Shown: positions 3,374-57,519, numbered from the stretch's first letter. The stretch is DNA of 64,000 bases from an uncultured bacterium (GCA_937930175.1 CALGLP010000022.1:2585-66584), one strand, 5' to 3'. Numbers and translations are program-made. Notes: a model not told the origin generated them from the sequence alone.

Positions 3374-5251
3374 ATGCAGCATTCTTTATTTTTACCCATG
3401 TTTCCAGACGATATAAAAGCTCGAGGATGGAGAGAGCTTGATGTTCTTATCATTAGCGGTGACGCCTATGTAGATCATCCTTCATATGGCACGGCAGTCA
3501 TTGGTCGGGTTTTAGAGGATCAGGGATATAAGGTTGGCATCATTGCTCAGCCGGATTGGCGAAGCCTTGAGGATTTTAAGCGGCTTGGTCGGCCACGACT
3601 TTGTGCCTGCATTACCTCTGGGAATGTTGATTCGATGGTGGCGCATTATACGGCCAACAAGCGTAAGCGTCATGGCGATGACTATACTCCCGGCGGGGTG
3701 GAGGGTAAGCGTCCAGATCGTGCCTTGATCGTTTATAGCCATCGCATACGCGAGGCGTTTAAAGGAATTCCCATTATTTTAGGTGGTCTTGAAGCGAGCA
3801 TGAGGCGGCTTGCGCATTATGATTATTGGGATGATGCTCCTCGGCGTTCGGTTTTGCTTGATGCGAAAGCGGATATGATTGTTTACGGCATGGGAGAGCG
3901 ACAAATCGTTGACGTTGTTAAGCGCCTTGATGGCGGTGAAATGATTGGCACCATGGTCAATGTACGTGGAACTGCGGTTAACGTTAAAAAAGAAAACATT
4001 CCTCAAGATGCTATTGTAATTCCTTCTTTTGAAGACGTGCAAAAAAGTCTTGAAGCTTTTAACAAGGCTTTTGTCGTTATAAATCAGCAGCTGAGCCCTG
4101 CGAAGGCTCGGGCGATTGTGCAGCTGCATAAGGATCAGTATGTGTTGCAGAATCCACCAGCATTACCTTTGACAACTAAAGAGCTTGACCATAGCTATGC
4201 TCTTCCTTATCAGCGTGCGTGGCACCCCTTTTATGATGCCTTAGGCGGGATCAAAGGTTTTGAAACTGTGCGTTGGTCGATCATTGCCTTACGTGGTTGT
4301 CCTGGCGAGTGCAGTTTTTGCGGACTAGGCATGCATCAGGGACGGATTGTGCAGAGTCGCAGCGAGGAATCGATTTTGAAAGAGGCAAGGCTTTTGGCTA
4401 GTCTACCTGGATTTCGGGGCACTATTACTGATCTTGGTGGTCCAACGGCAAATCTTTATCTTGCCACGTGTGCCAAATGGGATGCGCAGGATCCCTGTGC
4501 CTCAAGGCAATGTTTGATGCCGCAGAAATGTCCGTCTTTGAAATTAGGCTATAGCAAGACCCTGGCGCTTTATCGCGCGATCAAAAAGATTCCTGGCGTT
4601 AAACATCTTTTTATTGAAAGCGGCATTCGCTATGATTTGTTGGTTGAGTCGCAGGCGCAAGAATATCTTCGGGAGTTGTGCGCCAATTATATTAGCGGCC
4701 AGATGAAGGTGGCCCCGGAACATACCGATGAGGGTGTTTTGAAGCTAATGAATAAGCCTTCGTATAAAGTATATGAGGCCTTTGTTCATCAATTTGAAAA
4801 AGTGAATGCGCGGCTTGAAAAGAAAAGATTTCTTGTGAATTATTTTATCAGCGCGCATCCTGGAAGCCGTTTGAACGAAGCCTTGTCATGCGCCACAAGA
4901 CTTTTGTCGCGCAATATTTATCCTGAGCAAATTCAAGATTATTTGCCTCTTCCTATGACACTCGCGAGTTGCCTATATTATACCGGCGTTCACCCTGTAA
5001 GCGGAGAATCTGTTTTTGTTGCCAAGGATTCGCAGGAGCGCTTGATGCAGCGCGCGTTGTTGCAGTCGCAGAATTCTGAGAACCGTCCCTTGATTCAGAA
5101 GGCTTTGCGTATTCTTGGCCGGGAAGACCTGGAGGGCTATTTTTTTCCGCGTAGACCAAGAGAGCGCAAAATAATATCGAGGTATTTAGCATATCGTAAA
5201 AAACAAAAGAGTGGCGATCGAAGGGCGTTAAAAAAATCTAAAAGGAGGTAG
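3374..5251 (+). CDS. ygiQ: YgiQ family radical SAM protein (UPF0313)
   Basis: N-terminus MFPDDIKARGWRELDVLIISGDAYVDHPSYGTAVIGRVLEDQGYKVGIIAQPDW is the characteristic YgiQ N-terminal domain. 625 aa with Cys-rich radical SAM core (GCPGECSFCG). Confidence 0.88.
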   Translation: MQHSLFLPMFPDDIKARGWRELDVLIISGDAYVDHPSYGTAVIGRVLEDQGYKVGIIAQPDWRSLEDFKRLGRPRLCACITSGNVDSMVAHYTANKRKRHGDDYTPGGVEGKRPDRALIVYSHRIREAFKGIPIILGGLEASMRRLAHYDYWDDAPRRSVLLDAKADMIVYGMGERQIVDVVKRLDGGEMIGTMVNVRGTAVNVKKENIPQDAIVIPSFEDVQKSLEAFNKAFVVINQQLSPAKARAIVQLHKDQYVLQNPPALPLTTKELDHSYALPYQRAWHPFYDALGGIKGFETVRWSIIALRGCPGECSFCGLGMHQGRIVQSRSEESILKEARLLASLPGFRGTITDLGGPTANLYLATCAKWDAQDPCASRQCLMPQKCPSLKLGYSKTLALYRAIKKIPGVKHLFIESGIRYDLLVESQAQEYLRELCANYISGQMKVAPEHTDEGVLKLMNKPSYKVYEAFVHQFEKVNARLEKKRFLVNYFISAHPGSRLNEALSCATRLLSRNIYPEQIQDYLPLPMTLASCLYYTGVHPVSGESVFVAKDSQERLMQRALLQSQNSENRPLIQKALRILGREDLEGYFFPRRPRERKIISRYLAYRKKQKSGDRRALKKSKRR

Positions 5252-14094: not shown

Positions 14095-14295
14095 ATGCCC
14101 GTTGTCATTATCGAAGGACCGCATCTGGAATTGGATGTCAAGAGAGTGCTTGTCAAGGACGTAACTGATGCTTTAGAGAAGGCCTACACCTTTCCTCGCC
14201 CTGCTTATGGGATTATTATCAAAGAGAATGCTTCGGAAAATGTCGCTAACGGCGGGGAGTTGGTCTTTGATCGCAAGAACAAACAAAGGTCTTGA
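14095..14295 (+). CDS. 4-oxalocrotonate tautomerase family protein
   Basis: 66 aa beginning MPVVIIEG (catalytic Pro1). AAGGAG RBS 8 nt upstream. Confidence 0.75.
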   Translation: MPVVIIEGPHLELDVKRVLVKDVTDALEKAYTFPRPAYGIIIKENASENVANGGELVFDRKNKQRS

Positions 14296-14339
14296 GCGTG
14301 CCTAATTTTTAGGCAGAAATCCCGTTGGTTCTTAAGAAA

Positions 14340-14690
14340 TATTACTGAACAGCTTCTTGCTTAAGCGGGGCGTGCTGACATTATCCTTCGCTCACACACC
14401 CTAGCCCCCAGATTTGACTAAAAAGGAACGAAGAAGATCTGAGGGCTAGGAAACTCGCGAGAGGACAATGCCAGCACGCCTTTCAAGCTTCGGTGATCTT
14501 TTAATCAAGACTGTTGCCAAAAAAATGTTCGAGATTGTCTTGCTTCGAGAAGGACGTTGGGCAGGCTTCGCGGGCATGGTCTTTGCCCTGTCTTTGGGCA
14601 AAGGAGCGAAGCCGAACATCGAGCGAAATGTTCCACGCTGGGGAACATAAGCGCTCCTGCGAAAAGAAGACAATCTCGAAAAACAAGTTA
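14340..14690 (-). ncRNA. Candidate structured non-coding RNA (class unidentified), probably transcribed from the minus strand
   Basis: Long GC-richer non-coding gap between the tautomerase gene and carB. Nested helices: 18-bp 14370-14387/14463-14480 and 13-bp 14400-14412/14437-14449, whose only three mismatches (A-C, A-C, C-A on plus) all become G-U wobbles on the minus strand. Further helices: 14-bp 14529-14542/14666-14679, 8-bp 14564-14571/14605-14612, and competing hairpins GAACAT/ATGTTCC/GGAACAT at 14613-14648. Overlapping short ORFs on both strands, none with RBS. No RNase P, tmRNA or SRP signature motifs seen. Confidence 0.4.
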
Positions 14691-14774
14691 GTGTTAATTA
14701 TGAACCAACAAATCAGTTTTTAGGATCGCTCTGTAATATTTGATATGGCCCAATGCGAAATCAATTTTTTAAAT

Positions 14775-14802
14775 TTGTACCCTTTTTATTTTATGCTACA
14801 AT
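14775..14802 (+). promoter_or_regulatory. Putative sigma70 promoter (TTGTAC-16 nt-TACAAT) driving a ~215-nt carB leader
   Basis: -35 TTGTAC at 14775-14780, -10 TACAAT at 14797-14802. The inverted-repeat element copy 1 lies just downstream, before the carB start at 15028. Confidence 0.4.
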
Positions 14803-14833
14803 GCTTCAAATTGAAATTGGAGTACAGAAGAGT

Positions 14834-14943
14834 GCACCCCGTTAGAGAATTGCATACTAATGGTTTTTTTATAAAGGGTAAAGATATCGCCAGCCATGCA
14901 GATCTATCAACGTTATTATCGGCACTCTTCTCTAACGGGGTGC
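14834..14943. repeat. Inverted-repeat element copy 1: perfect 16-bp terminal inverted repeats GCACCCCGTTAGAGAA / TTCTCTAACGGGGTGC enclosing 78 nt, in the carB leader
   Basis: Arms read directly at 14834-14849 and 14928-14943. A second copy with the same 14-15-nt arms is at 56343-56458. Confidence 0.7.
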
Positions 14944-15027
14944 AAGCTGTAAAGCCTTCCCAAAACCTACAACGTCGTGATCAAATAAAAATCATTCTTC
15001 AATTCTTTTTTACAAGAAAGGGTTTCT

Positions 15028-18000
15028 ATGCCAAGGCGTAATGACATTCATAAGATTCTTATTATTGGTTCTGGTCCGATTATCATTGGCCAGGCATGTG
15101 AGTTTGATTATTCTGGCACGCAGGCCTGCAAAGCGCTTCGTAAAGAAGGCTACGAGGTTGTTCTTGTCAATTCTAACCCAGCCACCATTATGACAGATCC
15201 CGAGATGGCGGATAAAACTTATATTGAGCCTTTAACTCTTGAATCTTTAGAGCGCATTATTGCTAAAGAGAGGCCTGATGCGTTGTTGCCTAACTTGGGA
15301 GGGCAAACGGGGCTTAATTTGTCGTCGGGATTATATAAGGCAGGCATTTTGGAGAAATATGGAGTTCAGATCATTGGTGTCAAGGCCGATGCGATTGAAC
15401 GGGGCGAAGATCGCGAGATTTTTAAAGCAACTATGAAGCGGCTTGGTATTCCTGTGCCTCAATCAGAGATCGCTGAGTCTGTGGAAGCTTCAGAAGCTAT
15501 TGCCCAGAGCCTTGGATATCCTGTCGTTATCCGCCCAGCTTATACTATGGGGGGCACAGGCGGCGGGATTGCTTATAACGTTGAAGAATTGCGCGCTATT
15601 GCCTTGCGTGGGCTTACCGTGAGCATTGCCCACCAGGTCTTGATCGAGGAAGCGGTCGTGGGCTGGGAAGAGCTTGAGCTTGAAGTGGTGCGCGATGAAA
15701 AGAATCAAAAGATCACCGTATGTTTTATTGAAAATATTGATGCTATGGGTGTGCACACCGGCGATAGTTTCTGTGCCGCGCCTATGTTGACAGTGCCCGT
15801 TGAACTTCAAAAGAAGATGCAGGATTTTTCGTATAAGATCGTTGATGCCATTGGCGTGGTGGGTGGGACCAATGTCCAATTTGCCCACAATAAAAAAGAT
15901 GGCCGTCTAGTTGTTATTGAAATTAATCCCCGCACCTCACGCTCCTCAGCGCTTGCATCCAAAGCCACAGGATTTCCTATCGCCATGGTCTCGACGCGTC
16001 TGGCTGCAGGATTTACCATGGATGAAATTCCTTATTGGCGCAATGGAACGCTGGAAAAGTATACGCCCAGCGGCGATTATGTGGTGATCAAGTTTGCGCG
16101 ATGGGCTTTTGAAAAATTTCCCCAAGCCAAGGATATTTTAGGAACGCAGATGAAGGCTGTTGGGGAAGTCATGAGTATTGGCAAGACATTTAAAGAGGCC
16201 TTCCAAAAGGCCATTCGTTCGCTTGAAACAAGCCGCTATGGTTTGGGCGGGGCGAAGAACTTTAAAACTCTTTCCGTAGAGCAATTGCGTGAAAAGCTTC
16301 GCAACCCATCGAGTGAACGCATTTTCTTGATGTACGAAGCCTTGCGTCAAGGCCTTGGCGTGGCAGAGCTTCATGCCATGACGCACATTGGCGAATGGTT
16401 TATTAAGGAAATGAAAGATTTGGTGGATTTTGAAGAGGCCATGATCAAAACGTCTTGGGCCAAGCTTTCCGATCAAGATTTTATCAAGGCCAAGGAGTGG
16501 GGATTTTCAGATAGATATCTGGCGGGCTTGTTTGGGGTCAATGAAAAAGATGTGCGCGCCAGACGCTTAAAGCTTGGCAAGATCGCGCGTTACGAAGCTG
16601 TGCCTGTGAGCGGAGTTCAAAATGCCGCGTATTATTATTCAACGTATAGCCCGGGCAAAGACGAGGTCAAGGTTTCAAACAAAAAGAAGATCATGATCTT
16701 AGGCGGTGGCCCAAACCGTATTGGACAGGGGATTGAGTTTGATTATACTTGCGTGCACGCTGCCTTTGCGTTGCGTGAGGCAGGGTACGAAACGATCATG
16801 ATCAATTGTAATCCAGAAACAGTCTCAACCGATTACGATACTTCGGATAAGCTTTATTTTGAGCCGTTAACCGTCGAGGATGTTTTAACAATTTATGAAA
16901 AAGAAAAGCCCGAGGGCGTGATCGTGCAGTTTGGCGGACAAACCCCGCTTAACATCGCAGACCAGCTTAAAGAAAATGGGGTCAAGATTTTAGGTACAAC
17001 GCCGGAAAGCATTGCTTTTGCTGAAGACCGTGAACTCTTCCGTCAGAAAATGATTGACCTTAATATTTTACAGCCAGAGAGTGGCACTGCGCGATCGCTT
17101 GAGGAAGCGTTAGCGATTGCTCAAAAGATCGGCTATCCGTTAATGGTGCGGCCGTCGTTTGTTTTGGGTGGACGCGGCATGGAAATTATTTATGATGAAG
17201 GAATGCTTAAGAAATATGCCATTGAGGCGATCAAGGTGAGCCCCGAACATCCGATGTTGATTGACCGCTTTCTTGAACAAGCCCTGGAATGCGAAGTCGA
17301 TGCCCTTTGTGATGGCAGCGAGACCTTTATTCCGACGGTAATGGAGCATATTGAGTGGGCTGGGGTGCATTCAGGGGATTCCGCGTGTTCAATCCCAAGC
17401 CGCAATATTAGCAATAAGCATTTAGAAGAAATCAAGAAATTTACTGCCATTATTGCCAAAGAGTTAAAGGTTGTCGGGATCATTAATATTCAGTATGCGA
17501 TTTGTCACGATAAGCTTTACATTTTGGAGGCCAATCCGCGGGCCTCGCGCACCGTGCCGATTGTCTCCAAGGTCATGGGGGTTCCCATTGCGCGTATTGC
17601 GACATTCTTAATGTTGGGCAAGAAATTAAAAGACTTTCCGGAAATTAAAAAGATTAAAGCTGTGTTTGTTGGCGTGAAAGAAGCCGTGTTTCCTTTTAAT
17701 ATGTTTCCCGAAGTGGATCCGCTCTTGGGCCCAGAGATGCGTGCCACCGGCGAGGTTATGGGCATTGGCGATACCTTTGGGGCTGCGTTTGCCAAGGCCC
17801 AAGAAGCCGTTGGCTCGAAGCTTCCTTGGGCAGGAACTGTACTTTTGACGATAGCGGAAAAAGACAAGAAATTGCTTTTGTCCATTGCGCGGGAACTTAG
17901 TCGGCTTGGATTTAAGATCCGCGCCACCACAGGGACCAGTGCGTTTTTGGATAAAAATCATATTGTCAACACGCGCATTCAGAAGCTTCATGAAGGCCGT

Positions 18001-18234
18001 CCCAATATCGCGGATGCCATCAAGAATAATGAATTGCAATTGATCATCAATACACCGATTGGCCGCGATAGTAAGCATGATGATAGCTATGTGCGCATGA
18101 TGGCGATTCAGCGCAAAATTCCGTATGTGACATCTATGGCCGCGGCTCAGGCCACGGTTGAGGGGATCGCGGCGATGAAAAAAGGCGATCAAGCGCCAAA
18201 ATCATTACAAGAGCATCATAAGGGTTTAGCTTAA
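15028..18234 (+). CDS. carB: Carbamoyl-phosphate synthase large subunit
   Basis: 1068 aa. N-terminus MPRRNDIHKILIIGSGPIIIGQACEFDYSGTQACKALRKEGYEVVLVNSNPATIMTD, duplicated ATP-grasp halves, C-terminal MGS-like domain. No carA adjacent. Confidence 0.97.
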   Translation: MPRRNDIHKILIIGSGPIIIGQACEFDYSGTQACKALRKEGYEVVLVNSNPATIMTDPEMADKTYIEPLTLESLERIIAKERPDALLPNLGGQTGLNLSSGLYKAGILEKYGVQIIGVKADAIERGEDREIFKATMKRLGIPVPQSEIAESVEASEAIAQSLGYPVVIRPAYTMGGTGGGIAYNVEELRAIALRGLTVSIAHQVLIEEAVVGWEELELEVVRDEKNQKITVCFIENIDAMGVHTGDSFCAAPMLTVPVELQKKMQDFSYKIVDAIGVVGGTNVQFAHNKKDGRLVVIEINPRTSRSSALASKATGFPIAMVSTRLAAGFTMDEIPYWRNGTLEKYTPSGDYVVIKFARWAFEKFPQAKDILGTQMKAVGEVMSIGKTFKEAFQKAIRSLETSRYGLGGAKNFKTLSVEQLREKLRNPSSERIFLMYEALRQGLGVAELHAMTHIGEWFIKEMKDLVDFEEAMIKTSWAKLSDQDFIKAKEWGFSDRYLAGLFGVNEKDVRARRLKLGKIARYEAVPVSGVQNAAYYYSTYSPGKDEVKVSNKKKIMILGGGPNRIGQGIEFDYTCVHAAFALREAGYETIMINCNPETVSTDYDTSDKLYFEPLTVEDVLTIYEKEKPEGVIVQFGGQTPLNIADQLKENGVKILGTTPESIAFAEDRELFRQKMIDLNILQPESGTARSLEEALAIAQKIGYPLMVRPSFVLGGRGMEIIYDEGMLKKYAIEAIKVSPEHPMLIDRFLEQALECEVDALCDGSETFIPTVMEHIEWAGVHSGDSACSIPSRNISNKHLEEIKKFTAIIAKELKVVGIINIQYAICHDKLYILEANPRASRTVPIVSKVMGVPIARIATFLMLGKKLKDFPEIKKIKAVFVGVKEAVFPFNMFPEVDPLLGPEMRATGEVMGIGDTFGAAFAKAQEAVGSKLPWAGTVLLTIAEKDKKLLLSIARELSRLGFKIRATTGTSAFLDKNHIVNTRIQKLHEGRPNIADAIKNNELQLIINTPIGRDSKHDDSYVRMMAIQRKIPYVTSMAAAQATVEGIAAMKKGDQAPKSLQEHHKGLA

Positions 18235-56320: not shown

Positions 56321-56563
56321 ATGACGCAGGACAAAAACCCTATTCACCCCGTTAGAGAATTAAATGATTCGGCGGTTGGTGTTGACAAGAAGGTTCCACT
56401 TGATGGCGAGTCACCCCTAATGGGAAATCTACGGCTGACGTATTTCTCTAACGGGGTAAAGAAATTTTTTAAAGATTTGTTGGAAAAGCTGGACCAAAAG
56501 ATGCTCGAGAAAGCAAAGACAAAGCCTTGCTGCGCAAAAAGCAAGCCTAAGGATGCCTCGTGA
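56321..56563 (+). CDS. Possible small leader ORF (80 aa) spanning inverted-repeat element copy 2; coding status doubtful
   Basis: GGAGGAG RBS before ATG 56321. C-terminus ...KTKPCCAKSKPKDAS. Its stop overlaps the permease start. Similarity to the analogous ORF at copy 1 is limited to the inverted-repeat arms, so the conservation is at nucleotide level. Confidence 0.2.
   Translation: MTQDKNPIHPVRELNDSAVGVDKKVPLDGESPLMGNLRLTYFSNGVKKFFKDLLEKLDQKMLEKAKTKPCCAKSKPKDAS
56343..56458. repeat. Inverted-repeat element copy 2 (arms TCACCCCGTTAGAGAATT / ATTTCTCTAACGGGGTA, enclosing about 84 nt) in the leader of the ArsP-like permease gene
   Basis: Left arm 56345-56359 and right arm 56444-56456, identical over 14-15 nt to copy 1. 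Interior unrelated to copy 1. Confidence 0.7.
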
Positions 56564-57519
56564 TCAAACCCATCATTGATTGGTTTTTTTATTCGCTGTT
56601 TCAGCTTGACCCTGAATCTCACGTCGTGGGAGCGCTGCATTTTTTTATTTATGACACGATTAAGATCATGGTGCTTCTTTTTGTGATGATTTCTTTTTTG
56701 GGTTTCTTGCGATCGTTTCTTGATCAAAAACGTATTAAGCAATGGCTGAGCCACAATTCCTTTTTTGCTAGCGTCTATGCCGCGATATTTGGCGCGATTA
56801 CGCCTTTTTGTTCGTGCTCCTCGATCCCCATTTTTTTAAGTTTTGTCAAAATGGGCATTCCTCTGGGCGTGATGTTTTCTTTTCTGATTACTTCCCCGAT
56901 GATTAACGAGTATCTGGTTGTTCTGATGTTAATTTTTTTTGGTTGGAAAATCACCTTGGTTTATGTTGTGAGTGGCATGGTCATCGGTATTGGCTCAGGC
57001 CTTATCCTAGGACGGATGAATCTTGAGAAATACTTGGAGCGAGATCTTTTTTTAACAGCAGAGGAGTCTCAAGAAGAAAAGGGGCCGAAGACGTTAGGAG
57101 AGCGGATCAACTTTGGTCTGGGCGAGGCCAAGACCATTTTGGCGCGGCTTTGGATATGGATTATGGTTGGTGTTGGGTTGGGTGCTTTGATCCATAATTA
57201 TATTCCTGAAGAAGCGATTCATGCTGCGATTAATAAAACAGGGCCATTTTCTGTGCCGATCGCCGTGGCCTTGGGTGTGCCGATGTATGGCAGCTGTGCC
57301 GCGATTGTTCCGATTGCCGTGGCCCTTTTTCACAAAGGTGTTCCTTTAGGGACAGCGCTTAGCTTTATGATGGCGACAAGCGCCTTGAGTCTTCCTGAGA
57401 TGGTTATTCTCCGTCGAGCCATGAAATTAAAGTTGATCATTATCTTTTTTGCCATTACGACCTTGGGAATTATTTTTACAGGGTATCTCTTTAATATTTT
57501 GCAAAAGGTGTTAATATAA
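56560..57519 (+). CDS. COG0701/DUF318-family permease (ArsP-like), with TPFCSCS motif
   Basis: 319 aa polytopic. ITPFCSCSSIPIFLSFVKMGIPLGVMFSFLITSPMINEYLVVLML matches the predicted-permease (ArsP) family. Confidence 0.75.
   Translation: MIKPIIDWFFYSLFQLDPESHVVGALHFFIYDTIKIMVLLFVMISFLGFLRSFLDQKRIKQWLSHNSFFASVYAAIFGAITPFCSCSSIPIFLSFVKMGIPLGVMFSFLITSPMINEYLVVLMLIFFGWKITLVYVVSGMVIGIGSGLILGRMNLEKYLERDLFLTAEESQEEKGPKTLGERINFGLGEAKTILARLWIWIMVGVGLGALIHNYIPEEAIHAAINKTGPFSVPIAVALGVPMYGSCAAIVPIAVALFHKGVPLGTALSFMMATSALSLPEMVILRRAMKLKLIIIFFAITTLGIIFTGYLFNILQKVLI

Follow-up and report, generated by a model that had tools for sequence, protein, structure and literature searches.

The self-complementary region upstream of carB in the window, the 64,000-nucleotide stretch of DNA from an uncultured bacterium analysed here, was found to be an insertion (insertion 1) with inverted-repeat ends, copies in unrelated contexts and no conserved reading frame. 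Its internal hairpins (A and B) are kept between copies of the A/B family by compensatory substitutions. We put at about one half the probability that the helices flagged in this region make up a 434-nt non-coding, MITE-like inserted element, which belongs to a small unclassified family of Omnitrophota-type genomes. The main rival to this reading is an RNA gene that has moved between loci. The preliminary description had taken the region for an unclassified structured RNA; it is indeed real, non-coding and structured, lacks an Rfam match and carries compensatory changes, but it is absent from the spacer of four relatives and is not a resident RNA gene.

The spacer upstream of carB

The source genome of the window appears Omnitrophota-like, and the first 500 residues of its carB product had 79–81% identity to carB of Candidatus Omnitrophota MAGs. 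Contigs identical to the window were present in ENA and Logan assemblies. The gene order FeoB-MsrAB-GIY-YIG-tautomerase-carB was common to the window and four related species (L088–L091; L092/L093; L094; L215), whose contigs were reached via tautomerase homologues (tautomerases 79–80% identical); a fifth relative (L216) had a different neighbour. In four of four related species with the same order the tautomerase-carB gap was only 178–183 nt, against 732 nt in the window, which bears out the earlier remark that this gap is unusually long. It was also GC-richer than its surroundings, as had been described, with a GC content of 0.47–0.50 over positions 14300–14700 versus 0.34–0.39 immediately downstream. 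None of 80 carB loci from GTDB genomes (best identity 79–81%, Omnitrophota) contained sequence similar to the gap, and at that distance the gene order upstream of carB was no longer kept.

Aligned with the relatives, the gap of the window comprised the whole ancestral spacer (~180 nt) and two extra blocks, so that the flagged region is lineage-specific inserted DNA and not a conserved feature upstream of carB. Three large hairpins were located in the gap by repeat search (A and B in insertion 1, and C at 14833–14944), and the helices listed in the preliminary description were all present, with coordinates off by no more than 1 nt. All features are given in Table 1.

Table 1. Features of the tautomerase-carB region, in window coordinates
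Feature	Position	Strand	Description
Tautomerase gene	14095–14295		directly before the gap
Tautomerase-carB gap	14296–15027		732 nt
Short hairpin TGCCTAATTTTTAGGCA	14299–14315	+	just past the tautomerase stop; ancestral spacer, outside insertion 1; conserved in L088, L092 and L094
Left direct repeat GAAATC	14316–14321		possible target-site duplication of insertion 1; read from sequence
Left terminal inverted repeat	14320–14348		29 nt, 72% complementary to 14730–14758; equally 3' half of a closing helix
Insertion 1	about 14322–14755	- (most likely sense strand)	434 nt, non-coding, structured; holds hairpins A and B; end sequence GCATTGGGCCATAT...
Hairpin A	14369–14480	-	112 nt, nearly continuous helix of ~46 bp, U-rich apical loop
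Hairpin A, outer arms	14369–14387 / 14462–14480		19 nt, 89% complementary
Hairpin A, inner arms	14400–14413 / 14437–14450		14 nt, 93% complementary
Linker between domains A and B	14481–14527	-	present in L217; ~30 nt deleted in L140
Domain B	14528–14680	-	14-bp outer helix around a multi-branch region with hairpins b1 and b2
Domain B, long-range helix	14528–14541 / 14667–14680		14 nt, perfect
Hairpin b2, GGCTTCGC / GCGAAGCC	14564–14613	-	inner hairpin at 14582–14602
Hairpin b1, ATGTTCC / GGAACAT (plus strand)	14628–14648	-	loop CCAGCGN (minus sense) conserved
Right terminal inverted repeat	14730–14758		equally 5' half of a closing helix; end conserved in L217 and L218
Right direct repeat GAAATC	14756–14761		abuts the other end of insertion 1; read from sequence
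Likely carB promoter TTGTAC-16 nt-TGcTACAAT	14775–14802	+	ancestral spacer; block kept in all relatives
Upstream ORF (uORF) in carB leader	14832–15041	+	GGAG at 14819–14822, then GTG start; 69 codons
Insertion 2 (hairpin C)	14837–14944		108 nt; 13-nt ends CCCCGTTAGAGAA / TTCTCTAACGGGG; 78-nt interior; TGCA on both flanks
Hairpin C, arms	14833–14849 / 14928–14944		17 nt, perfect
carB	15028–18234		directly after the gap

Insertion 1 was missing from the same 178–183-nt spacer in the four related species, and its imperfect 29-nt inverted-repeat arms sit at the borders set by this comparison and pair with each other in the MFE folds of both strands. After excision of insertion 1 and one GAAATC, the remaining sequence aligned with the uninterrupted spacers of the relatives. 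GAAATC is a possible, weakly indicated target-site duplication of insertion 1, a single instance because only the window copy shows both ends. Given its absence in relatives, the inverted ends, the possible duplication and the unrelated contexts of its copies, insertion 1 behaves as an insertion and not as a resident RNA gene, and that it entered this spacer recently is the best-supported reading.

The promoter-like block at 14775–14802, judged by its match to the consensus, is likely the carB promoter, with insertion 1 a short way upstream and hairpin C a short way downstream. Insertion 1 is probably without effect on carB, sitting as it does between the terminal hairpin of the tautomerase gene and the putative promoter. 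The carB leader of the relatives (L088, L092, L094, L215) also contains a uORF, in which GGAG is followed by TTG or GTG and 25–34 codons; it stops at, or overlaps, the carB start (ATG) and has a T-rich run close to its end. The greater length of the window uORF is explained by hairpin C, which was inserted in frame after the first codon. Pyrimidine or arginine control may involve this conserved uORF, as a leader peptide or for coupling.

Family members and conservation of the fold

Three further metagenome contigs carry relatives of insertion 1, and the surrounding genes differ in each case. The JGI metagenome contig L140 was found by BLAST of insertion 1 against all loci fetched, and L217 and L218 by an exhaustive HMMER search with six-frame peptides of insertion 1 as bait, which recovered the spurious ORFs P0037 and P0038 on these two contigs. 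In the L140 copy, hairpin A was 83% identical over 119 nt (L140 2724–2838) and part of B was 77% identical. The 386-nt gap that holds this copy is bounded by a 428-aa gene without Pfam match and by a UvrD-like helicase gene, and the copy is in the opposite orientation relative to its neighbouring genes when compared with the window copy; it is without the outer regions and has internal deletions of 20 and 30 nt. The L217 copy, which adjoins tRNA-Asp and tRNA-Val, extends from the 5' outer region through B and the linker to the first arm of A, with a stretch of 35 nt of hairpin A identical to the window, before the contig ends. The L218 copy adjoins a divergent Cys/Met-metabolism gene and has, besides the 5' outer region, a variant form of B that includes an additional hairpin; hairpin A is absent. 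Domain B was conserved in L140, L217 and L218 (5' half), and the 5' boundary GC(A/C)TTG(G/A)GCCAT was common to the window, L217 and L218. As L217 comes from the same sample series as the window, it may represent a second copy or a sister species.

No second A/B copy was present in about 71 kb of the genome of the window, including the 1.2 kb and 5.8 kb added by extension, no match to the A/B family was obtained in phage and plasmid collections (distant mode), and a 20-mer of hairpin A was not found in viral contigs. No related transposase-bearing element was found for insertion 1 in the 2.2 Mb of loci searched. Two viral contigs (L220, L221) retrieved with a degenerate pattern of the domain-B core matched that pattern alone and were regarded as chance, and a marginal candidate (P0039 on L219, E 6e-4) was rejected as unrelated, being a 165-nt tandem satellite with a coverage of 1.

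Independent Logan assemblies of the species of the window break at the borders of insertion 1 and hairpin A, with contig ends at window positions 14374 (L083), 14481 (L084 and L085) and 14319 (L087). These breaks would be explained by k-mers shared between family copies (e.g. L217) within one community, and hint at more than one family copy in that community.

Rfam was searched at the gathering score over the whole 64-kb window and at E <= 10 over 14200–15100, in neither case with a match to any of 4227 models, those of RNase P, tmRNA, SRP and 6S RNA, riboswitches, the PyrR site, OLE, GOLLD and HEARO included; a tRNA and tmRNA scan of the window returned nothing. This agrees with the earlier inspection by eye, which had recognised no RNase P, tmRNA, SRP or cobalamin-box signature. 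The same Rfam search on L140 and L217–L219 gave tRNAs and chance matches only.

Gene callers predicted a 60-aa ORF at 14468–14650, which was rejected as a protein on finding no homologue besides itself among 5.8 billion proteins; the statement that the gap has no RBS-led ORF was essentially right. All six frames are open across domain B, P0037 and P0038 are read in different frames, and the window copy has a stop where both are open. The A/B family is non-coding because the frames differ between copies, the window copy contains this stop and the 60-aa ORF is without homologue. A 98-aa ORF in the gap (14745–15041) had no Pfam match.

Dinucleotide shuffles of the 732-nt gap had an MFE near -186, whereas the gap itself reached -236.2 on the plus (z -7.2) and -245.7 on the minus strand (z -6.8), and thus folds far better than shuffles on both strands, as its description as densely self-complementary had implied. 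The z-score of the L140 copy was -9.6.

For the conservation test, the MFE structure computed from the window alone was applied to L140. Among the 94 ungapped pairs, 68 were the same, 7 were changed on one side and still pairing, 10 were compensatory and 9 were broken. The 10 double-changed pairs compare with 0–1 in slid-partner controls and 5.0 ± 1.6 in shuffles, and the covariation score of 0.235 with 0.04–0.08 in slid controls. RNAalifold reported 9, 7 and 6 compensatory pairs for two, three and four sequences, respectively. A sample of 2–4 sequences is below that of an R-scape-grade formal test.

Compared with L140, hairpin A had 2 compensatory and 4 G-C/G-U changes. Domain B had 7 compensatory pairs among three sequences. 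In hairpin b2, whose inner hairpin is missing from L140, the outer stem had two compensatory pairs and the inner stem one, and in hairpin b1, 3/8 pairs covaried across four sequences, so that the ATGTTCC/GGAACAT hairpin proposed in the preliminary description is real. The competing GAACAT pairing proposed beside it was not conserved in L140 or L218 when read from the alignment. Two unpaired segments, the CCAGCGN loop and UCGCUCGAUGUUCGG, were conserved as well. A homology search with a covariation check had been suggested for the helices, and the compensatory changes of the homologues do keep them. In long DNA palindromes, compensatory changes can also arise via template switching during replication, without selection on RNA. 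Because template switching can correct long DNA palindromes, the compensation shows that the hairpins are maintained and not that RNA is the selected form.

The three mismatches of hairpin A, each A.C or C.A when read on the plus strand, turn into G.U on the minus strand, exactly the pattern from which transcription of the minus strand had been proposed. Hairpin A folds at -69.2 kcal/mol on the minus strand, as an almost continuous 46-bp helix, versus -58.7 kcal/mol on the plus strand. With G-U pairs allowed, the strand equivalent to window minus was better than its complement by 12–17 kcal/mol in the window and L140, and in both the difference was gone when G-U pairs were forbidden. All wobble pairs of hairpin A are on the minus strand, some common to the window and L140 and some specific to one copy. 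These two copies face opposite ways with respect to the flanking genes, and the bias is therefore the element's own and does not reflect the direction of replication of the locus. Domain B had no strand preference; L217, which is without a complete A, had no strand bias, and L218 slightly favoured the other strand.

Neither strand of the A/B element, in the window or in L140, showed a sigma-70-like promoter or an intrinsic terminator. In L140 the element starts about 13 nt past the stop codon of the upstream gene and would there need co-transcription. The proposed minus-strand transcription is thus favoured by the G.U pattern of hairpin A in two oppositely oriented copies, but finds no signal in domain B and no promoter or terminator. 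Modelled folds suggest that the sense strand of hairpin A is most likely the window minus strand.

Hairpin C and its family

Insertion 2 was likewise absent from the spacers of the relatives when aligned. It is unrelated to insertion 1 and a separate element in the carB leader. The extension of the candidate RNA to 14834–14943, which had been considered earlier, was discarded, as the hairpin at that place is a separate insertion of a different, widespread small-element family. Members of this family are defined by exact 13-nt inverted ends, an interior in the range of 66–96 nt and a 4-nt flanking repeat, all of which were found in the window copy. Other copies in this genome lie at 56347–56456 of the window and 2.8 kb beyond the window end (L224 11153–11265); the interior spacing of the two window copies is 78 versus 84 nt.

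A metagenome scan with the pattern CCCCGTTAGAGAA-N66-96-TTCTCTAACGGGG returned at least 120 stretches (L095–L214). Among the matches listed, the interiors were 66–92 nt long; many contained two GC-rich hairpins with stems differing between copies, and others were unrelated. An exact 4-nt flanking direct repeat, mostly TTTA or TAAA, was present in 80 of 118 non-redundant copies among the matches listed; the shuffled control averaged 22.5 and did not exceed 37.

Among the matches listed, 18 of 123 copies were within frames without a stop over 150 nt or more on either side, and all 18 had a length divisible by three. Such copies add peptides, e.g. LTPLEN...NSLTG or HPVRE...FSNGV, to the encoded frame. 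The UvrD-like helicase of L140 contains an in-frame copy (3619–3728), which lies between its DEYQD and GDPHQAIYGFRG motifs and splits the Pfam match of the helicase into two stretches. The three copies of the window genome are all within called ORFs (window 14832–15041 and 56321–56563; L224 11140–11280), the one in L224 coding for an HhH-GPD protein. The second of these ORFs (56309/56321–56563, 80–84 aa) has a good ribosome-binding site, the C-terminal sequence KPCCAKSKP and the hairpin-C element in frame; it overlaps the start of an ArsP-type permease gene (56560–57519) by 4 nt and had no match in Pfam.

The same 13-nt arms were also observed around interiors of just 5 to 27 nt, as minimal hairpins (L154 2745–2775 and 8591–8817), in three adjacent tandem units reminiscent of REP clusters. 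A hairpin-C-type arm was present within 80 nt of two of the four A/B family members (window 14755–14837; L217 569–583). The solo arm in L217 is 3 nt from the A/B element and abuts a promoter-like site, TTGACA-17-TAATAT, which is on the other strand and directed towards the tRNA genes. The proximity of these arms to A/B copies could reflect nested insertion or a shared target preference.

Rfam contained no match to the hairpin-C family, its pattern was not found in viral contigs, and a full-text literature search for the hairpin-C motif and Omnitrophota repeats yielded no relevant description, so the family appears undescribed. It is MITE-like, and its behaviour is that of the Rickettsia palindromic elements.

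Competing readings and known systems

Insertion 1 resembles a MITE in being shorter than 500 bp, having terminal inverted repeats and no transposase gene, and being present or absent at a conserved site. Its modular variation across copies, with A missing and an extra hairpin in L218 and internal deletions in L140, is in the style of decaying repeats. Under the MITE-like reading, a transposase in trans would recognise the ends and move the element, a short staggered cut leaving the GAAATC repeat. A function of the element in a folded, single-stranded form may be what maintains the hairpins, and this strand would most likely be RNA from the window minus strand, at least for hairpin A. An RNA function of insertion 1 is plausible; the absence of a strand preference in domain B, with L218 slightly opposite, counts against this reading. 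High copy number is a usual trait of MITEs, and typical MITEs are AT-rich. One copy in ~71 kb of genome, four family members in all and a GC content above that of the surroundings thus count against the MITE-like reading, as do the absence of a related transposase-bearing element from the 2.2 Mb of loci searched and the fact that both ends are visible only in the window copy. The inverted ends might just as well form the helix that closes an RNA.

By the main rival, insertion 1 would be a separate RNA gene of small or medium size (about 315–430 nt) on the minus strand, trans-acting or housekeeping, that was moved by recombination or horizontal transfer, its inverted ends simply being the closing helix. 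Covariation in several helices, conservation of the CCAGCGN loop and UCGCUCGAUGUUCGG though unpaired, the element-intrinsic G-U polarity of hairpin A in two copies of opposite genomic orientation, the GC content and the low copy number all fit such a gene. It is nevertheless missing from the same spacer in four related species, its gene context is not conserved and its architecture varies (L218 without A and with the extra hairpin; the deletions in L140). Promoter- and terminator-like sites are absent on either strand in the window and L140, domain B has no strand signal and Rfam has no match, and on balance we hold this explanation to be possible but rather unlikely.

Selfish repeats typically form long near-perfect hairpins, and the element might be inert DNA made of palindromes, either old insertions nested in one another or the scar of a recombination event, with no functional single-stranded form, its hairpins persisting by DNA-level palindrome correction and shared ancestry. 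The rarity of the family, its modular and partly deleted copies and the neighbouring insertion 2, which shows the spacer to be a place where insertions gather, agree with this. Such an origin is unlikely in view of the 10 compensatory versus 9 broken pairs at ~20% divergence, in short internal as well as long hairpins, the conservation of the b1 loop while the b1 stem changes, and the strand-specific wobble pairs of hairpin A. We consider it quite improbable that the A/B element represents a new class of mobile structured RNA without a protein, with the conserved fold from the element-intrinsic strand needed for its own spread, even though covarying hairpins in changing contexts would be explained in this way; if true, the RNA could serve as guide or recognition molecule to a recombinase whose gene lies at another locus, or could have a regulatory role and travel between sites.

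The position upstream of carB, the six open frames over domain B and the called 60-aa ORF could point to a small-protein gene or to an RNA that regulates carB in cis, be it as leader, riboswitch or antisense regulator, but both are highly improbable. A role in the carB leader was rejected, since the element lies upstream of the conserved promoter block and outside the leader, is absent in relatives, which regulate carB without it, and has its other copies away from carB. For a small protein, there is no homologue of the 60-aa ORF, the frames shift between copies and 14745–15041 lacks a Pfam match. Roles of insertion 1 in carB regulation and as a coding sequence are effectively excluded.

With the MITE-like reading preferred, the "large structured RNA" signal of this gap is mostly insertion history, which calls for caution in RNA discovery in compact uncultured genomes. 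Insertion 1 is nonetheless not plain junk, given its compensated helices and one hairpin of fixed polarity, and offers a rare case for studying how selection acts on the fold of something mobile, whether a small element or an RNA gene.

Several large or mobile-element RNAs in Rfam (HEARO/omega RNA of IS200-IS605, GOLLD, ROOL, OLE and 6S RNA) share with insertion 1 a length of several hundred nt, multiple helices and covariation, and some are carried by mobile DNA. Unlike these, insertion 1 matches no Rfam model, has no gene for a transposase, TnpB or IsrB beside it, and is conserved neither in its context nor in its architecture.

Prokaryotic MITEs are smaller than 500 bp, with inverted-repeat ends, direct repeats and stable stem-loop transcripts (PMC10969869). 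Those with structured transcripts, such as QMITE2 of Coxiella, the Correia elements of Neisseria and ERIC, are, like insertion 1, shorter than 500 bp and non-coding. Insertion 1 further shares with MITEs its ~29-nt inverted ends, a possible short direct repeat, an intergenic position near a promoter, a very stable stem-loop and unrelated contexts. It differs in its apparently low copy number, in lacking a known parent insertion sequence and in a GC content above that of its flanks; PMC10969869 does not mention for MITEs the compensatory substitutions and the strand-specific wobble pattern seen in insertion 1.

REPINs are paired REP sequences moved by RAYT transposases (PMC3116915). They can be likened to insertion 1 as long hairpin-forming non-coding units with conserved ends and a more variable middle, which function as a folded single strand and persist within lineages. 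REPINs are, however, ~100 nt long, abundant per genome and RAYT-linked, whereas insertion 1 has 434 nt and one copy in ~71 kb. Hairpin C is REPIN-like in size, but has 4-nt flanking direct repeats. Such duplications would not normally be expected from RAYT-type single-strand transposition.

Hairpin C can also be likened to the Rickettsia palindromic elements (RPEs; PMC10969869), both being small palindromic elements of about 100–120 nt that are often in frame in protein-coding genes. Hairpin C differs from RPEs in belonging to another sequence family and another phylum, in its exact 13-nt ends and 4-nt duplication, and in that most copies are intergenic. Its in-frame insertion, for example in the UvrD-like helicase, extends the behaviour of RPEs to a very different uncultured lineage.
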